DNA from: a bacterium | Lineage (GTDB): Bacteria; UBA8248; JACPRG01; G963555815 | Length of the DNA stretch: 64,000 nt | Reading direction: 5' to 3' | Assembly (NCBI GenBank): GCA_963555815.3 | Contig: CAUVWX020000002.1 | Span: 192,001 to 256,000, forward strand | Part shown: positions 32,060 through 45,294 of the stretch, piece after piece | Layout of the letters: the number at the start of each line of letters is the position of its first letter | Position numbering within the stretch: the first letter of the stretch is position 1 | Made by a program: the position numbers and the translations under genes | Notes under the pieces: model-generated | Database searches by the model: none | What the model saw: the letters and a program-made list of their open reading frames with translations, nothing else | Told to the model about the DNA's origin: nothing

Positions 32060-35000
32060 CTACGTTTTTACCTCCGCCGTGGCCGACACATAAGCAGCGC
32101 CGCTCGCGAACCGGGATAAGCGCTCGGTGAGCTTCTCCGCCGCGTCACCCTGCATGGGAAGACCCTCGGCGTAGGTTAACTGGAAACCCGCCTCGAGATT
32201 CTTGGAGCTTGCGTCCCGCAGTTGAGGTTCCAGAAACTCCTTCACCGGTTGCGCGTCCGGGACCGGCCCTCGGAACTCCAACTCGAACGATCCGCCCTCT
32301 TGGGTTTCATAACCACCCGTGATTGTGACGCACTTGTCCGCCCCGGATACGGCCCCCACTGCGCCGAGTAGCCGGAAAGCATCGCCGGATTCGAACATGC
32401 GGATGGTCAAAATCCCGATGTTCTCGACCTTTTTCGCCCGTGCCTGCTCCCACAACTGGACCAAGGCCTCTTTGAGGACGCCCTCGGCGGTCAACGATCC
32501 GGGGGGCTTCACGGTAGGCTGGCCTCGAGGCGGCACCACAACGGAACCCGGCTTCTCACCGGGTTTGACGGTCTCTTCCCCGCCTGGGACCAGCGGCTCG
32601 GGGTCCCCCGGCTTTTTCCGGGGCCAGATGCCGGCATTCTTCGCATAGGCCATGGTGAAGATCACGGATTGCTCATCGATCATGATGCCGGCCGCTGGAT
32701 CGCCCGGCCCGAACAGCAAACCTCCGCGTTGGTAGACGTATTCGCCCTGTTCGATGCCGCGCCGTACGCCGCGAATGAAGAGATCGTCGCCGATCAGGAT
32801 AGGTAACGCCGGATCGCGGCGGAACTCGTCGCGAAGCGCCAACGTGGTGATTTGACCCTTCTTGAGCGGTGTGCGGTCGCGTACATAAGCAGGCGAGTCC
32901 GGCTCGTCCTCGGACAGACGCAACTTGTTCAGTTCGCGCAACGCCCGAACAATCTGTTGCTGGCCCGCTCCGGGCTGATCGGAGGTGGACTGGATGTCAA
33001 TTGCCGAATGGGCCAGATCGACCTCACTCGCACCGACCCGGTTGCGGGATGGGTAGAAAACATGCCGGTAGCACTGTTGAATTGCGATCGCGAGTTCATG
33101 CTCGGACCGGGCTTCCATCTCTCGCACCTGGTCCTGCTGATGCTCCGCCAAATCGGCGAGGCGTTCCGGTTTTTTTAGTTCCTGCAAGGCCAGGCGATGA
33201 TAGGCTTTGCGGTGCATCTCTTCCTTGCGGGCGTCGTCCGCGACCACGAATACCAAATTGTTTCGAAGGGCCCTCAGAGCCGAACCTTCCGAGCCTTTTC
33301 GGGTGTAGATTCGCTCGATCAGTTCAGGCACGTTCTCGACTGATCCACCGATGGTCACGCCGTCATAGGCCAGAACGGCAAGCTTCGGCCGCCCGTCGCT
33401 GACCTCGTCGGGAACGTCGAACGGACCCCAGGAAAGGACACCGTCTCAAATGTCTTGCCGCCGAATATCTCGCGGATGCGGTCGTTGAGGTGGGCGCGCG
33501 CTTCCCCGGCATCGACGTGGCGTTCCTCGCGCCGGATAATCTGGCGCAGATTGGCCTCGACGAGAAAGCGCATCGGCGCGACGGGGCGGTCGTCAAGGTA
33601 GGCGGACTCGGCGATGAACTTCTTGCGCGCTTCCTCGATAAAGCTGATGTCCGTCGTGGGACCCAGGATCGAATAGCGCAACTGCTCGGGCGATATCCCT
33701 TTGAGCGGGTCGTTGAAGGCCAACGTGTGAATGAAGATGGTCCGGGCAACGTAGACCGCATAAGGCGGCAGGCCAACGTGATGGCTGGTGTCGATCTCCT
33801 CTGCTAGTGCCTTCTTCCCGACCGATCCGGCGGCGACATCGTTGGCAATAGCCGGCAGGTAGGCCGACTGCCCGAGGCGGGTCACGAGTTCCTGGCGAAT
33901 CGGTTCGTAGCCCGGATCGATATGGTGAAGATGAATCGCAGCCGCATCCCCGGGTTTCTCCTCCCAAAGATGTGAGATGGTTCGGGCCAATAGCCGTAGC
34001 ATTCCCCGCACCCGCTGAAAATTGCCGAGCGTCGCGGTCTTGCCCGTCAGGGTTTCCAGAACTTCCGGGTGCAGAGGATAACTCGATCGGAAGGTCTCCA
34101 CGGTCTCGGGCCGGGCGGCATCATCCGCCAGGGACTCCGCGTTGGCTCTCCAAAGCGCCCGGTAGGCATCCGTAACCGCCGGAATTGCCGCCTCGTCAAT
34201 GGATTTGAACAGGCGGCGGCGGAGCACCTGAACCGTCTCGTCTTCCTCGGTGGGATTCAACAGCGTCGCCTTGCGCGCCGAGACGCTCTCCGCTTCGGCC
34301 ATGTGATCGGCGATGAACTGGTTTTTTTCGTTATAGGCGTCGGTTGCACGTCCGTCCTTGCCGATCGCCAACGTATAGACGAGGGCGGCCTCAGGCGCGC
34401 TTTCGACGGCCTTGAACAACGAGGTCAGGAACGCCGTCAACTGATCGCGGGCATCCTCGAGGTTGCGTACCTTGCGCAGGTAAACCGACAACTCGTCGAG
34501 CAGGATTAGGGTCGGCTCGCCGCCGAACAACTCGCGCAGGGTCTCGGCGCCGGGCGCGATGCAGCTTTCGTCGCTCTTGCGCACCCGCTCATACCCATCC
34601 TTGCCGGCAAGCGCATAAGCGATCTCCCCCCAGGGAGTGTACGCGAGAAGGCCTTCTTCCATCGTCCGGCCATTGGCCGGATCCGCGTTTTCACCATCGA
34701 ATGCGGCGATACGGACTCGGCTCTGCGGAAGAAGGGAAGGATCGACAAAATCCGCAATACCCGGCACACCCTGCATGCCACGGGCGGCATGGCACAACGC
34801 GATCAGACCATGGGTCTTGCCGCCCCCGTACGAGGTATCGAGCCGGAAAATAGACGCAACTTCACCCCCCGCACCGGTCAGCCGCCGGCACACATTGGCG
34901 AGCAGGTTCTTGAGGCCCCTTGTGGGATAGGTGTTGGCGAAGAACCGCGCCGGGTCGAGATATTCCTCATTCCCCTTGCCGATGATGACCTGGGCCAGAT

Positions 35001-35085
35001 CCGCAGCAAAATCGGCCTCGGTAATCGCTCCTTTGAGAACATCCTCGCGTGGCCGGCAGGTTTCGAATATTGTTGGGACCGTCAT
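32060..35085 (-). pseudogene. DUF499 AAA+ ATPase, frameshifted
   Basis: FAADL, YGGGKTH (Walker A), LLDE (Walker B), SYPLHPE, FQRVRGMLRLLA. Adding one G to the G4 run at 33426-33429 restores PGGPFDVPD and joins ORF 32060..33358. Confidence 0.88.
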
Positions 35086-35277
35086 TGTTTCCGCTCCGCC
35101 TGCTCTCCTGAGGTCATCCGGCCCGACCGCGTTCGCTTCGGTCCATGGGTCGATCTCGCTTTTCCTGAACCGCCAGGAGCCCCCCACCTTGAAACCTGGA
35201 ATCGCTCTCTGGGAAACCAATCGGTAAATCGTACGGGTCTTGACCTTGAGGTATCCGGCCACCTCTCGCACGGTCAT
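35086..35277 (-). CDS. Excisionase-like HTH_17 DNA-binding domain, in frame with the DUF499 ATPase
   Basis: MTVREVAGYLKVKTRTIYRLVSQRAIPGFKVGGSWRF; no stop before the DUF499 ATG, which has its own GGAG RBS. Confidence 0.8.
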
Positions 35278-35590
35278 GACGTCGGTGTCGATTATAGTTC
35301 AATCCGTGTCTCGATCAGGCCTATTTGGATCCGAATGGTAAAATATAGCAAAATTGGCAACGTGGATGACAGCGCGATCCTGTGGATCAGCGAAAAAATC
35401 CTTCGCGGCTTCGCGTGCGGGTGGATCGCGAACGTATGCACTAAACCACCATTGAGGTATTGAAATCGCTTATCGATGATCCACCGCTCGATGTGCGCTA
35501 AGAAGAAGTGATTCCGCGCGAAGTCGAACAGATTGCGATTTTCCTTTTTCCGTTGCTCTCAGAGACTTGCTATGCGGCGTTCCTCTTCCA

Positions 35591-35809
35591 TTACCCGGGC
35601 TCCCGGGCGGGCGCGACGGCTATAGTCCAATCGAGGAGCCGCCCTGCGAAGAGGTCCTTAAGAATGTCTTTGAACCGTTCAGTAAAATCCGCACGGCCGC
35701 GACCCCGGTCGTTGTACTCTTTGCTCTGTGGCGCAAAGATCAAGTGAAGACGGGGTTCCAGTTTCTCGGTGTACGGCTCTTCTTGAGCTACCGGCGAAGC
35801 GGACGGAAG
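35591..35809 (-). pseudogene. C-terminal fragment of an unknown gene cut off by the IS remnant
   Basis: Startless open frame LPSASPVAQEEPYTEKLEPRLHLIFAPQSKEYNDRGRGRADFTERFKDILKDLFAGRLLDWTIAV...; closes at the IS junction. Confidence 0.35.
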
Positions 35810-35823
35810 TGAGTAGCCTGCTG

Positions 35824-36461
35824 GTGACGTCTAAGCAGATTGGAGTGACCGAACAAACCTGCTACCGATGGCGGAAGGAGTACAGAGGGCTGCGGATGGA
35901 CCAGGCCAAGCGGTTGAAGAACCTGGAGAAGGAGAATACCCGGCTCAAGAAGCTGGTAGCGGATCTGTCTTTGGACAACCAGATTCTGAAAGAAGTCTCC
36001 TCGGGAAACTTCTAGGCCCGGCGAAAAGGAGGCACGCAGTGGAGTGGGTCGGAGAATGATTGGGATCTGAGCGAGTCTCCGAACGCCGGGCCTGTAAAGT
36101 ACTGGAGCAACCGAGATCGACCCAACGACGAGGTCGGCAAATCTCCGAAGAGGAAGCGCAACTAGTGGCCCGAATGGTGGATCTAGCCAGTCAGTACGGC
36201 CGATATGGCTACCGAAGGGTCACGGCCATGCTCCGGGGGGAGGAATAGAAGGGCCTTTCGGCTGTTGACCATCTTGGAGGAATACAGCCGAGAGTGCCTA
36301 GCCATTGAAGTCCAAAGACAGATGAAATACCAGGATGTGTTGGATCAGTTAGCGGAGTTGTTCGTGAACCGCGGGGGTACCCCAATACATAGGATCGGAC
36401 AACGGCTCGGAGTTCACGGCTGGGGCAGTCCGGGACTGGCTCAAGACGGCAGGAGTCAAGA

Positions 36462-36467
<6 letters not shown>
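35824..36467 (+). mobile_element. IS3-family (IS407-like) remnant, truncated at both ends and internally deleted
   Basis: orfA end EQTCYRWRKEY...LVADLSLDNQILKEVSSGNF with GGGAAAC orfA/orfB junction; orfB pieces [36 protein letters not shown] and SDNGSEF (shifted frame). No terminal IRs seen. Confidence 0.88.
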
Positions 36468-38010
<1,543 letters not shown>

Positions 38011-38173
38011 CGAAGAACGCTCGATATACGCCCCTCTCGAACGCATTCAGGCGCATCATTGGCAGAACGATGGATTTTTCTCCTGTTTTCTTCTCTGTGT
38101 CCAGAATGTGTCTCGTGACAATACGGCGTATTAGATGGACGTCAGACGCTAGTTCCTGGGTTCTAAAAGGCGC

Positions 38174-41715: not shown

Positions 41716-43095
41716 ATGACTTCTCTCGCATCTTTCCGCCGCCGGGCGGCCCGTTGGCTCGTCCTTCCCCTTCTTTTCGCCACCCCGGGGATGGGAGCGT
41801 CTGAGGAATCCTCCTGCCCGGGGGGGGCGGCTCATTTCCTTGAAGCGGCCGAAGGCGCCGAGGACCCCGTCGCCCGGCAATCCCTTCTTCAGAAGGCGAT
41901 TGATCTTTGTCCTGAGGACCCCGAGCCTTATTTACTCCTTGGGCGTCTCTACCAGTCTTTGGACCTTAAGTCCAGGGCCAGGAGGGCTTACGCCGACGCC
42001 CTAGGACGGGTGCCGCACCTGCGGGAAATCCTTCGAGAGATGAGCGAGCTTGACCCCGGGAATCAAGGCGACTCCCTTTTGCAGGCCCTCCTCTCTTCCG
42101 AGGCCGGAGAGAGAGTGGCGCTTGCTCCCGAGGAGTCGGCCGAGGAATTGCTGGTGAAGGAGCCGACGGATCCCAAGGCGCGATTGACCCTTGCTGAGGA
42201 GCTGACGGGCCGGGGTCAAGAGATGTTGACTCAGAATCTGCCCGGTCTCCCCCTCATTCAAAGGGCCGTTGAGCTCGTCCCGGACTATGGAAGGGCGCGT
42301 GAGCTCTTGGTGGAACACCACCGGACGCTTGGGGATTACCACTACAACGGTGAGCTGTATGAAAAGGCCTTGGCCCAATACCTCCAGGGCCTTGAGTATG
42401 ACCCAGAGGATCCTCTTCTTCACCTCCAAGCCGCGGAGAGCTATAGCCGTCTCGAAGGCCGTGAGGAGGACGCCCTGGGTCACTATCGGAAGGCTGACCA
42501 GGTATTTGCCGCACGGGTTGAGGAGATGAGTGAAGAAGATCAGACATCTCTACGAGAGCGGATCAAACGCGGCCTGACTCGTCTGGACGATACGCAGCCC
42601 GAATACCGTCAGGCCCAGGGGGCCCGCGTTCACACCGAGGGAAGACAATTGCTCGCCCGGGGAGACTACGAGGCGGCCTCCAAGGTCCTGAAGGATGCCA
42701 TCGGCTGGACCCCTGGAAACGCCCTCATACACTTCGATCTGGCCACCACCCTGAAACAGCTTCCGCCCCACCGGGAGGAGGCCCTGCGTCAGTTTCAGCG
42801 GGCCTTGTCCCTCTTCGAGACCCATCCTCCGCCCGAAGCGGTTTCCCGGGTAGACCGGTTCAAGGCGCGAACCCAGCTCGAAATCGACCACCTGTCTGGT
42901 CAAACTGGATCCTTGGCCTATATCCTGCGCCAGCTGGCCGTGGGGGCTCAAGCCCGAGCCATCGAGATAGGGCTCTTCGTTCTCTCCTTCGGGGCCATCG
43001 CGGCCTACCTTCTGCGGGCGGGGATCCGCTTCAGCGATGGAGGAGGCGCTGATGCCCCCGATGCCGAGGTGACCGAGACCGATCCCACCCAATAG
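41716..43095 (+). CDS. Tetratricopeptide-repeat protein with signal peptide and C-terminal TM
   Basis: Repeated A..L.P TPR patterns; hydrophobic N-terminal and C-terminal segments. Confidence 0.75.
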   Translation: MTSLASFRRRAARWLVLPLLFATPGMGASEESSCPGGAAHFLEAAEGAEDPVARQSLLQKAIDLCPEDPEPYLLLGRLYQSLDLKSRARRAYADALGRVPHLREILREMSELDPGNQGDSLLQALLSSEAGERVALAPEESAEELLVKEPTDPKARLTLAEELTGRGQEMLTQNLPGLPLIQRAVELVPDYGRARELLVEHHRTLGDYHYNGELYEKALAQYLQGLEYDPEDPLLHLQAAESYSRLEGREEDALGHYRKADQVFAARVEEMSEEDQTSLRERIKRGLTRLDDTQPEYRQAQGARVHTEGRQLLARGDYEAASKVLKDAIGWTPGNALIHFDLATTLKQLPPHREEALRQFQRALSLFETHPPPEAVSRVDRFKARTQLEIDHLSGQTGSLAYILRQLAVGAQARAIEIGLFVLSFGAIAAYLLRAGIRFSDGGGADAPDAEVTETDPTQ

Positions 43096-43456
43096 ACGCG
43101 CAGAGGACCCGGAAGGGGGATTGAGAGGCTAAGGTTACCACCCAGCAGTCATTCTCCCAGCGGTCGAACCTCCAGATTCGGTCAAAGACATAGACGTGCT
43201 TGACCTCGTAGGTGCCCGGCCCGCTTCGGCGGGCGAGCCAGTCGTAGGAACGGGCGTCGACGTTGTAGGCCGAGGCGGTGAGGTTCGTAGGCAGGTGGAG
43301 CTGGACGATCTCAATGGCCCGGGTGCGCTCCCGGGCCTCTTGAAGGTTCTTCCACCAGCAGGTCCCCCCGATTACAAGGAGGGCGGTGGTGAGAAGACCC
43401 AGCCCCATGAGGAGTCCAGGACCGCGTGTCCGGGCGATTTTTGCCTCCCCCGACAT
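43031..43456 (-). CDS. Hypothetical membrane-anchored protein
   Basis: N-terminal TM helix; starts 4 nt after the GT2 stop; 3' end overlaps the TPR gene. Confidence 0.55.
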   Translation of the reverse strand: MSGEAKIARTRGPGLLMGLGLLTTALLVIGGTCWWKNLQEARERTRAIEIVQLHLPTNLTASAYNVDARSYDWLARRSGPGTYEVKHVYVFDRIWRFDRWENDCWVVTLASQSPFRVLCASIGWDRSRSPRHRGHQRLLHR

Positions 43457-43459
43457 GGC

Positions 43460-44176
43460 TCAAAAACGATGCTTTCGAAGCAGGATGGCCCAGAGATACC
43501 AACGAAAGTAGCTGCGGGCCACACGGAATATTCGAAAGCTGGATGTTCCAAGTGTCCGACCTCGCCAGACGGTCGGAACCTCTGTGATGCGGTAGCCCTT
43601 CAAAAAGGCCTTGACGCAGATCTCCAGGGATGAAGCGAAGCCCGCCTCCTCCAAGGGGGTTCCGGTCAGGACTTGGGTTCGGTACATTTTAAATGCGTTG
43701 CTCACGTCGTGCGTGGGAATTCCCGTAAGACGCTTGAGAGAGCCACAGACGAAGCGCGAAAATACCCCTTGAAGCCACGGCCCCCCCAGGCGCTCGCCTC
43801 CCGGCATGTATCGAGAGGCACAAACGACATCATAACCCTGCTCGATTTTCTCATACATCTTCTCAATTGTGCGAGGGTCATCGGCCGCGTCTGCCATCAG
43901 CACCACGGTGACCGGCGTGTGCACCTCCTCGAATCCCGACCGCAGGGCGTTGGTGATCCCGCGGGGCCGCTGGCTTGAGACAAGCCGCAGGTGGGGATAC
44001 CGGGCCGACATCTGACGGACAACCTGGGCGGTCCCGTCATCAGAGCTGTCGTCCACGACGATCACCGCATGGGGAAGGCCCAGGGCCCCCTCCAGGGATT
44101 CCAGGGTCTCTCCAATCGTCTCCTCCTCGTTGAGCGCCGGGATGACGACGGTGAGCTTGGGATCTTCAGGCACCAT
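43460..44176 (-). CDS. GT2 glycosyltransferase (DPM1/polyprenol-phosphate type)
   Basis: VVIPALNEE, VDDSSDDGT, MADAADDP, DVVCASRY, EVP. Confidence 0.9.
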   Translation of the reverse strand: MVPEDPKLTVVIPALNEEETIGETLESLEGALGLPHAVIVVDDSSDDGTAQVVRQMSARYPHLRLVSSQRPRGITNALRSGFEEVHTPVTVVLMADAADDPRTIEKMYEKIEQGYDVVCASRYMPGGERLGGPWLQGVFSRFVCGSLKRLTGIPTHDVSNAFKMYRTQVLTGTPLEEAGFASSLEICVKAFLKGYRITEVPTVWRGRTLGTSSFRIFRVARSYFRWYLWAILLRKHRF

Positions 44177-44277
44177 ACCCCCCTTCACAAAAGGCAGTCG
44201 CCCCTTCACCCCGCCGGTCTGAGGGGTGGGGACAGGGAAATTTTAATTCATTGTTTGGGAAAGAGAAGAAAATTGAG

Positions 44278-44307
44278 AAAAAAGCCCCTCTTCAAAAGAA
44301 GAGAGGC
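44278..44307 (-). terminator. Intrinsic terminator ahead of the GT2 gene
   Basis: Minus strand GCCTCTCTTC-TTTT-GAAGAGGGGC followed by T6 (10-bp stem, one G-U pair). Confidence 0.75.
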
Positions 44308-44552
44308 AGCGCAGGCGAGCCCACAGTGTTCCCTTCCGAAGGGCAACGCGCCCTTCCTTCGGCAGCCATTGGCAGAGCCGGGGCAAAAAGCCCTCGGTGT
44401 CCTGGGTAGGTGCCGTTTGCGCTGGCCGCCGTCCGATTCCCTTCAGCCTATCTTCCTGTGTTATGTGCCTGCCAACGAAAGACTCGCCTGCGCCTCTCCC
44501 ACAAAATCACCGATTGGACCAAAAGGGGGCAAACCCAACATCTTGTACCCTA
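44278..44552 (-). ncRNA. Candidate structured leader RNA/attenuator, family not recognised
   Basis: Long-range helix 44483-44498 with 44301-44319, nested helices, terminal terminator and an upstream promoter. Confidence 0.5.
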
Positions 44553-44558
44553 CTATGC

Positions 44559-44587
44559 AGTAAAAGGCTAAATATTGGGCTTGTCAA
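44559..44587 (-). promoter_or_regulatory. Putative sigma70 promoter for the leader/GT2 transcript
   Basis: Minus strand TTGACA (44587-44582)-17 nt-TTTACT (44564-44559). Confidence 0.5.
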
Positions 44588-44647: not shown

Positions 44648-44708
44648 TTGACAGGCCAGTTAGGCCACGATATGTTCTGCGCCAGTTACATAGTTTTGTA
44701 AGCTAAAC
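44648..44708 (+). promoter_or_regulatory. Putative sigma70 promoter plus DtxR/SirR-like operator
   Basis: TTGACA-17 nt-TATGTT (44648-44676); imperfect palindrome GTTTTG-TAAG-CTAAAC at 44693-44708. Confidence 0.55.
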
Positions 44709-44733
44709 ATAAGTTCCTTTTGGGTTCTCCCCT

Positions 44734-45294
44734 ATGCTGACGTTTCAAATCAAAAAAGAGTTCTCTTTCACACCGAGTGAGCAGCACTACCTGCGGGCGA
44801 TATACGAGCTCCAGGAGGAACAGGGGTACGCCCGGGTCACGGATGTCGCTCGCAAGCTCAACATCGGCAAAGGGGCCGTCTCTTTGGCCCTGAAAGGGTT
44901 GGTCGAGCGCGATCTGATTCGCCACCCCCACTACCAGGTCATCGAGCTCTTGCCCCAGGGGGAAATGGCGGCCAAGCAGGTGATGAGCCGGTTTGCTGTC
45001 CTCAAACATTTCCTTGAACGGGTCCTGGGCATCAAAAAGAACATGGCTTACGTCGACGCCTGTCTGATGGAGCATTTCATCAGTGGCGAGACGGTGGATC
45101 GCCTGATTGACCTCATTCGTTTCTTTGAGTTGGAAGACGACCTGGTCCGAGAGGCCGTGCAGCGGTTTCAGGCCTACCGGCGAACCTGCGAGAGCACAGA
45201 GAATTGTCCGATCTGTGAGTTCAGCTGCGAGGTGGCCCTTCCCGAACTGGAGAATTCAGCTGCGGACCAGGGGACAGGCCACACGGTGAGGTGA
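44734..45294 (+). CDS. DtxR/MntR-family metal-dependent regulator with Cys-rich tail
   Basis: HYLRAIYEL, ARVTDVA HTH, DACLMEHFIS; C-terminal C-x5-C-x2-C-x3-C. Confidence 0.9.
   Translation: MLTFQIKKEFSFTPSEQHYLRAIYELQEEQGYARVTDVARKLNIGKGAVSLALKGLVERDLIRHPHYQVIELLPQGEMAAKQVMSRFAVLKHFLERVLGIKKNMAYVDACLMEHFISGETVDRLIDLIRFFELEDDLVREAVQRFQAYRRTCESTENCPICEFSCEVALPELENSAADQGTGHTVR

Follow-up and report, generated by a model that had tools for sequence, protein, structure and literature searches.

Judged from its conservation, the intergenic stretch that separates a GT2 glycosyltransferase gene from a DtxR-family repressor gene appears to encode, on the minus strand, a real, selected and uncatalogued structured RNA, which was found in two genomes. 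The explanation tentatively favoured is a stand-alone, self-terminating structured RNA of approximately 275 nt that may act in trans by protein binding. Taken separately, the stand-alone character of the RNA is considered reasonably probable, and protein binding, once a stand-alone RNA is granted, is considered distinctly probable.

The RNA lies in a window of 64,000 nt (the whole stretch of DNA that was analysed). The source genome (G000) comprises 2.08 Mb and is 95.7% complete, and absences are to be read against this incompleteness. Close GT2 relatives carry the NCBI name Nitrospinota bacterium, and the host lineage is presumably Nitrospinota-related. One GT2 relative, P0002, shows 88% identity. 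The locus contains the following features:

43460..44176, minus strand: GT2 glycosyltransferase gene, 238 aa (PF00535, E=1e-29), downstream neighbour of the RNA
44240..44252, minus strand: box resembling a promoter or an operator (TAAAAT at 44245-44240), located 3' of the terminator, with 7 invariant columns in 6 family genomes
44278..44307, minus strand: intrinsic terminator (terminator scan), 10-bp stem (44307-44284) and U6, directly abutting helix P1
44308..44494, minus strand: structured core, with the 15-bp closing helix P1 (44494-44480 with 44322-44308) at its base
44495..44500, minus strand: invariant linker GGGAGA, which with the next three bases can extend P1 over 44307-44299
44502..44552, minus strand: predicted 5' leader with the tentative hairpin P0 and its 14-nt C/U-rich loop (44533-44520)
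44559..44587, minus strand: predicted sigma70-type promoter, TTGACA (44587-44582), 17 nt, weak -10 TTTACT (44564-44559)
44648-44676 and 44734-45294, plus strand: promoter and gene of the DtxR-family repressor, divergent neighbour (promoter scan and domain match)

The RNA is oriented as the GT2 gene and is located 100 nt ahead of its start codon. According to the ORF list and Pfam, GT2 is a single gene at the locus, with no polysaccharide operon, and the DtxR-family gene is the head of an iron-type ABC importer block. GT2 is followed, here and in four other family loci, by a gene (43034-43456, minus strand) for a predicted membrane-anchored protein of 141 aa that matches no Pfam family. Elsewhere in the window (33355-38046, minus strand), the ORF list shows a broken mobile/defence island, presumably composed of an ATPase-like ORF that is truncated, IS3-like transposase fragments and a type I methyltransferase divided between two ORFs.

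Predicted fold and its conservation

Pair probabilities of P1 were close to 1.0 in G000, and the helix is invariant in the second genome (G001). The long helix with a 3-nt bulge described in the initial annotation (44498-44483 with 44319-44301) was found in place, as were its TTGGCAG/CTGCCAA helix and both hairpins on the minus strand. The predicted elements inside the core are as follows:

44475-44469 with 44375-44369, minus strand: helix P2 of the MFE fold of G000, invariant
44378..44397, minus strand: predicted hairpin P4, 7 bp with one bulge and a U5 loop, invariant
44338..44356, minus strand: predicted hairpin P5, 7 bp, with both G001 changes inside the loop
44431-44423 with 44368-44360, minus strand: predicted pseudoknot helix of 9 bp crossing P2 (duplex -16.8 kcal/mol), invariant

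The crossing helix, which had been overlooked in the initial annotation, is the second-strongest helix of the RNA. Its 3' strand runs straight on from the 3' strand of P2, and in the modelled fold the two would form a coaxially stacked pseudoknot. The energy of the crossing helix was matched by 12 of 2000 and 2 of 2000 shuffles of the otherwise unpaired residues. Under nested-only folding, P2 reached a probability of 0.71 in G000 and 0.12 in G001. A nested fold in which the crossing helix replaces P2 lay only 1.7-3.2 kcal/mol above the minimum, so that the two helices could be alternatives rather than a knot. For the region as a whole, the folding z-score was -1.5, with 13 of 200 shuffles folding equally well. 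Among 38 terminator-like sites of the genome, the terminator of this RNA had the longest abutting long-range helix, with 14 bp (12 of them Watson-Crick), and the runner-up had 8.

The sole homologue found is that of G001, which belongs to the same genus, and the two sequences are 96% alike. From P1 to the terminator, 0 of 110 paired positions were changed in G001, as against 9 of 101 unpaired positions (Fisher p=0.0011), with the split assigned by hand from the helix list and the underlying structure derived in part from the single-sequence fold of G000. The invariance of the crossing helix is favoured in this count because the helix was picked among those compatible with both sequences; when it was left out, the changes amounted to 0 of 96 paired and 9 of 115 unpaired positions (p=0.004). 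On these counts, pairing appears to be under purifying selection. The 45 core pairs never vary between the only two sequences, and the core helices and the pseudoknot are therefore without covariation. The longest invariant run, 92 nt, takes in interior helices as well as unpaired runs.

Divergence at four-fold sites between the two genomes was 11.1% genome-wide, as determined on crude gene calls, and 16.3% in 11 genes of the window. The core and terminator diverged by 4.0%, compared with 1.5-1.7% for SRP, 6S and tmRNA, and the best 200-nt segment of the RNA was the 13th-14th most conserved of 210 intergenic regions. Two intergenic stretches outside the tRNA and tmRNA calls, G000:C1:318385-319172 and C2:368197-368540, were more conserved against G001 than the RNA (2 differences per 200 nt) and may be missed genes or further RNAs.

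No second copy was found in the source genome. Beyond G001, no homologue was recovered by DNA search in 61 and 51 genomes, or with models R1, R2 and R3 in 51, 41 and 39 genomes, respectively, and in 5 family genomes. The covariance-model searches covered the host's own phylum and the family genomes, and remote homologues can be missed because each model was built from just two nearly identical sequences. In the 51 genomes, 28 non-self loci were obtained with a 17-nt pattern (2 mismatches allowed), none of them supported when scored with R2, and a 26-nt pattern gave 0 matches in JGI metagenomes. With a 22-nt degenerate pattern, 4 matches were obtained in GTDB contigs, consisting of G001 and three without extension, one of which was antisense to a signal peptide. 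Viral patterns yielded 3, 0 and 25 matches, none supported, and the plasmid and phage search yielded short chance matches only.

The weak model matches that were inspected were rejected as terminators, a glycine-riboswitch-like stretch, a palindromic repeat and sequences antisense to lipoprotein genes. A long GC-rich palindromic element, probably a MITE-like repeat, was noted in at least two places of one genome, G017 (L167:2603-2714 and L301:1501-1734). In G011, a stretch with motifs like those of a glycine-riboswitch aptamer, but below the Rfam gathering threshold, was observed at L035:1501-1619 on the minus strand.

Transcription signals and gene context

Of the promoter proposed in the initial annotation, the perfect -35 hexamer stood and is identical in G001, whereas the -10 hexamer is weak. 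The -10 hexamer has no A at position 2, which is why the promoter scan did not list the site, and the spacer in G001 is one base shorter than in G000. Transcription would start near 44552, a position counted as inferred because the promoter is weak and unlisted and its spacer is shorter in G001. The statement that the region holds no credible ORF agreed with the alignments of G000 and G001, in which no ORF was conserved. Candidate leader peptides were rejected: a 26-codon ORF from 44543 is frameshifted in G001, a 25-codon ORF from 44370 is without a ribosome-binding site, and changes in other frames are mostly non-synonymous.

Hairpin P0 of the leader is a tentative prediction. It was derived from the fold of G001, where its stability is -14.0 kcal/mol, versus -3.9 kcal/mol in G000, and RNAalifold selects a different leader fold. 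All 14 pairs are kept between the two genomes, with one double and four single changes, most changes in P0 being C/U transitions opposite G. The P0 loop is invariant in G001 and complementary to the terminator 3' arm at 9 of 10 positions.

The 10-bp terminator with U6 was found again by the terminator scan and showed 0 changes over 30 nt in G001. The long helix and this terminator had been described as mutually exclusive. This applies to the outer 7-9 bp of the long helix, which are reached via a 3-nt register slip, but not to the 15-bp core helix, which coexists with the terminator at p~1.0; the linker extension onto the terminator 5' arm (44307-44299) is the only part that excludes the terminator. 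The antiterminated fold was worse by 7.5 kcal/mol in G000 and by 8.6 kcal/mol in G001, the terminator thus being favoured at equilibrium. Before the terminator 3' arm is made, the invariant outer helix was predicted at 0.57-0.71 in both genomes.

The linker and the leader loop are invariant complements of both terminator arms; complementarity this good is reached by 0.6% and 1.3% of random genomic words. For the duplex of the loop with the 3' arm, -12.6 kcal/mol was calculated with the pseudoknot penalty uncounted, and adding this duplex brings both folds close. Invariant upstream complements to both terminator arms are unneeded by a plain stand-alone RNA. As both folds share the P1 core at p~1.0, there is no evident route from the core to a switch.

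Downstream of the terminator, the neighbourhood of the box showed 1 change in 44 nt between G000 and G001, versus 8 in the next 57 nt. In the family genomes, the box is located about 65-75 nt ahead of the GT2 coding region, and by its sequence it is likely GT2's own ancestral control site, either a -10 element or an operator. Since this family-conserved box follows the terminator, GT2 seems to keep its own control site. GT2 orthologues are present in all 6 other family genomes. The RNA was not found upstream of any of the 4 GT2 orthologues of other genera for which upstream DNA was available, at 80 metagenome loci related to GT2, or at 23 dtxR orthologous loci, and it therefore travels with neither neighbour. 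In relatives, the GT2 block and the dtxR block each lie beside other genes. Upstream of the GT2 gene of G006 (L026:2400-2530), a structured leader of another kind was observed, which has two strong hairpins and no Rfam support at E<=5; its motifs resemble those of Moco/Wco riboswitches.

Contigs from RNA libraries cover 44319-44478 and 44369-44534 in 2 of 3 runs. They indicate neither abundance nor ends, because their depth of about 3 is the same as that of neighbouring genes. A second mapping of the data gave no new core variants.

The DtxR-family repressor was present in 49 of 51 genomes of the phylum. An operator-like palindrome is located just 3' of the dtxR promoter (44690-44710, plus strand), ranking 128th genome-wide with a rough matrix, and in relatives a GTTAA-N7-TTAAC-type palindrome lies over the dtxR -10. 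The sequence suggests that the repressor is autoregulated. Control of the RNA promoter by DtxR was rejected, as this promoter ranked 5612th compared with 128th for the dtxR leader, with a rough DtxR-box matrix several of whose training sites were mis-picked.

Known families, protein partners and targets

The initial annotation could assign the RNA to no known family, and the Rfam search (Rfam 15) bore this out, giving nothing at the gathering threshold for the region. Rfam matches in the window were limited to 3 tRNAs. At E<=10, 5 matches were obtained for the region, the best being PyrR with 21.8 bits against a threshold of 54 bits, on the terminator only. The identities 6S, SRP RNA and RNase P were rejected because the genome's copies lie elsewhere, above the Rfam cut-offs (66, 161 and 304 bits, respectively), and tmRNA likewise has its copy elsewhere (ARAGORN). 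Model searches for the lysine riboswitch and HEARO gave no match at the RNA. A putative resemblance to glycine, TPP, cobalamin and ykkC aptamers was not borne out by Rfam at E<=10. No description of the RNA was found in the literature searched, outside of supplements, which could list unnamed motifs.

The SRP RNA of the genome (G000:C2:5846-6222) is of the large type (RF01854) and lies directly after tRNA-Ser(GGA). Beside the normal tRNA-Pro(TGG), two extra over-long ARAGORN calls were obtained (G000:C1:814217-814303 and C1:981508-981595), which are possibly integration-site remnants.

The usual protein partners were sought as well. The 95.7% complete genome gave no PF02599 match for CsrA, the partner of CsrB/Rsm sponges, no PF05731 match for Ro60/TROVE, the partner of Y RNAs, and no PF00078 match for a retron or RT-associated ncRNA; neither Hfq nor ProQ was found in it. 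The OMEGA partner TnpB was found in 0 of 7 family genomes, and the IscB (RRXRR) search was silent, as was its positive control. DUF3800 genes numbered 0 in G000 and G001 and were seen in 1 of 7 family genomes. Of the general RNA chaperones sought, only KhpB/Jag was found, and it is present in 7 of 7 family genomes.

An internal motif had been compared with the ops/JUMPstart element. This comparison was not supported, as the check for a NusG paralogue gave one PF02357 match only and base pairing is predicted for the motif; in the modelled fold, the letters are better read as the 5' strand of the 9-bp pseudoknot helix.

Predictions of mRNA targets rested on crude gene calls throughout. For the single-stranded core segments, no target exceeded 8 shuffles each, and J5/1 fell within the shuffle range. 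The best mRNA match of the whole 52-nt leader reached -51.4, compared with -41 to -48 for shuffles (n=8), at a G-rich site whose start call is uncertain. For the leader loop, the best conserved target (-21.3 kcal/mol) was an ORF that is presumably IleS, by its N-terminus, and this value was matched by 16 of 60 control loops. As a loop target, GT2 ranked 153 of 1661. Ribosome-binding sites with G-runs are common in the genome.

Explanations and related systems

Of the alternatives raised in the initial annotation, the best supported is now an independent ncRNA outside the known families, and a terminator/antiterminator leader of GT2 is weakened by the folding energies, by GT2's own box and by the 4 of 4 orthologues without the RNA. 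Under the favoured explanation, a non-coding RNA gene of about 275 nt would be transcribed from its own promoter to its own terminator. P1 would close a core in which an uninterrupted strand lets P2 and the 9-bp crossing helix stack on each other; the terminator would form directly after P1, so that most transcripts would end at 44278. The product may be an end-protected, stable RNA whose invariant unpaired residues bind protein as a scaffold or decoy. Base-pairing and Csr-sponge modes are less likely because no core segment gave a target above shuffles, control loops equalled the best conserved target of the leader loop, and the searches for Hfq, ProQ and CsrA found none of them. For a protein-binding RNA whose fold is demanding, confinement to a single genus is unexpected.

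The main rival, considered rather unlikely, is that the RNA acts in cis on the GT2 operon, as an attenuator or a new riboswitch. This would explain the invariance of the linker and loop, their complementarity to the two terminator arms, and the orientation and distance of the RNA with respect to the GT2 start codon. In this case, the linker would extend P1 co-transcriptionally over the 5' arm, the 3' arm would pair with the C-rich loop, and occupancy of the pseudoknot core by a ligand or protein would bias a kinetic choice towards read-through; the probability of the outer helix before the 3' arm emerges, in both genomes, and the near-equality of the folds once the loop duplex is added fit such a choice. 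Weighing against it are the core shared by both folds with no evident route to a switch, the conserved GT2 box after the terminator, the single copy in the genome with none found in 51 phylum genomes, and the lack of a NusG paralogue among the matches found. A trans base-pairing sRNA of the RsaE/FsrA type is distinctly unlikely. Its C/U-rich leader loop would block G-rich ribosome-binding sites, with the core serving stability, and the invariance of this 14-nt loop, the frequency of G-run sites in the host, the presence of KhpB/Jag and the fact that C-rich-loop sRNAs can be Hfq-independent (PMC4152353, in the part of that article consulted) are all in keeping with it. The control loops that equalled the best conserved target, the low rank of GT2 as a target and the weakness of P0 in G000 speak against it. 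An iron-sparing role for such an sRNA is possible given the adjacent DtxR-family gene, but by its sequence the RNA promoter lacks a DtxR box, as its rank with the rough matrix indicates.

Very unlikely is a mobile-element relic or domesticated piece, MITE-like, situated at a rearrangement junction and bounded by 15-20 bp terminal inverted repeats, that would now serve mainly as a promoter-terminator insulator between gene blocks. The restriction to one genus, the long terminal inverted repeat and the position at the boundary of the GT2 and dtxR blocks, which lie apart in relatives, would suit this origin; it is opposed by the single copy, by interior helices and unpaired runs that are also invariant (the 92-nt run), and by the absence of any TnpB, RT or HEARO match in the searches. 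Quite improbable, finally, is a new pseudoknotted two-state RNA class in which the conserved linker and C-rich loop unzip both terminator arms, and a core-bound ligand or protein switches between two outcomes, a terminated RNA whose anti-Shine-Dalgarno-like loop is exposed and read-through into GT2. If true, it would be a new riboswitch class doubling as a trans-acting RNA and controlling a cell-envelope glycosyltransferase.

Several known systems share properties with the RNA. Among C-rich-loop sRNAs such as RsaE, FsrA and RNAIII, a long closing helix and a pseudoknot are atypical. As far as the consulted part of the source describes them (PMC4152353), the RNA resembles these sRNAs in having a C-rich unpaired segment that could base-pair with ribosome-binding sites, in a host where no Hfq was found, and differs in that no target rose above controls here and the loop hairpin is uncertain. 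With the RfaH/ops system (PMC6391919), taking the consensus as in the initial annotation, it shares GGCGG..AGCG-like letters in a leader before a glycosyltransferase; unlike in that system, no NusG paralogue was found here, the motif is predicted paired, and a single GT2 gene follows.

The motifs skipping-rope, drum, FuFi-1 and DUF3800-I combine a complex fold with a following intrinsic terminator and, in the sections seen, were judged improbable riboswitches and were associated with nearby proteins (Weinberg et al. 2017, PMC5737381). The predicted complex fold of the RNA likewise directly precedes an intrinsic terminator. It is unlike these motifs, to the extent that those sections describe them, in being without an Rfam match, in occurring in one genus and in being tied to no neighbouring gene, and unlike the DUF3800 motifs in that no DUF3800 gene was found in G000 or G001. 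The raiA motif RNA, or ModT (RF03072), has helices P1-P8 with two pseudoknots and is known from >2,700 species belonging to two phyla; at about 200-260 nt it is single copy, has its own housekeeping promoter and acts in trans, and its long form ends in a terminator (PMC10861870, PMC11706538, both as seen in part). On this partial description, the size, the single copy, the predicted promoter of its own, the pseudoknotted multi-helix predicted fold, the terminator and the proposed trans action of the RNA are similar, whereas it has five helices, one predicted pseudoknot, two genomes and no Rfam match. By analogy, the RNA may work like the terminator-ended Weinberg motifs and raiA/ModT, being by Rfam a member of none.

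The weight of the RNA is limited by its occurrence in two genomes and by a core without covariation. The 2.1-Mb genome of an uncultured, presumably Nitrospinota-related lineage nevertheless keeps a predicted-pseudoknot RNA of 275 nt that is none of its housekeeping RNAs, and for which none of the usual partners sought (Hfq, ProQ, CsrA, Ro, RT, TnpB) was found. Orphan structured RNAs such as raiA/ModT and skipping-rope are where new RNA biochemistry is sought. The RNA is small enough for in vitro synthesis and probing, and its predicted fold gives sharp tests.
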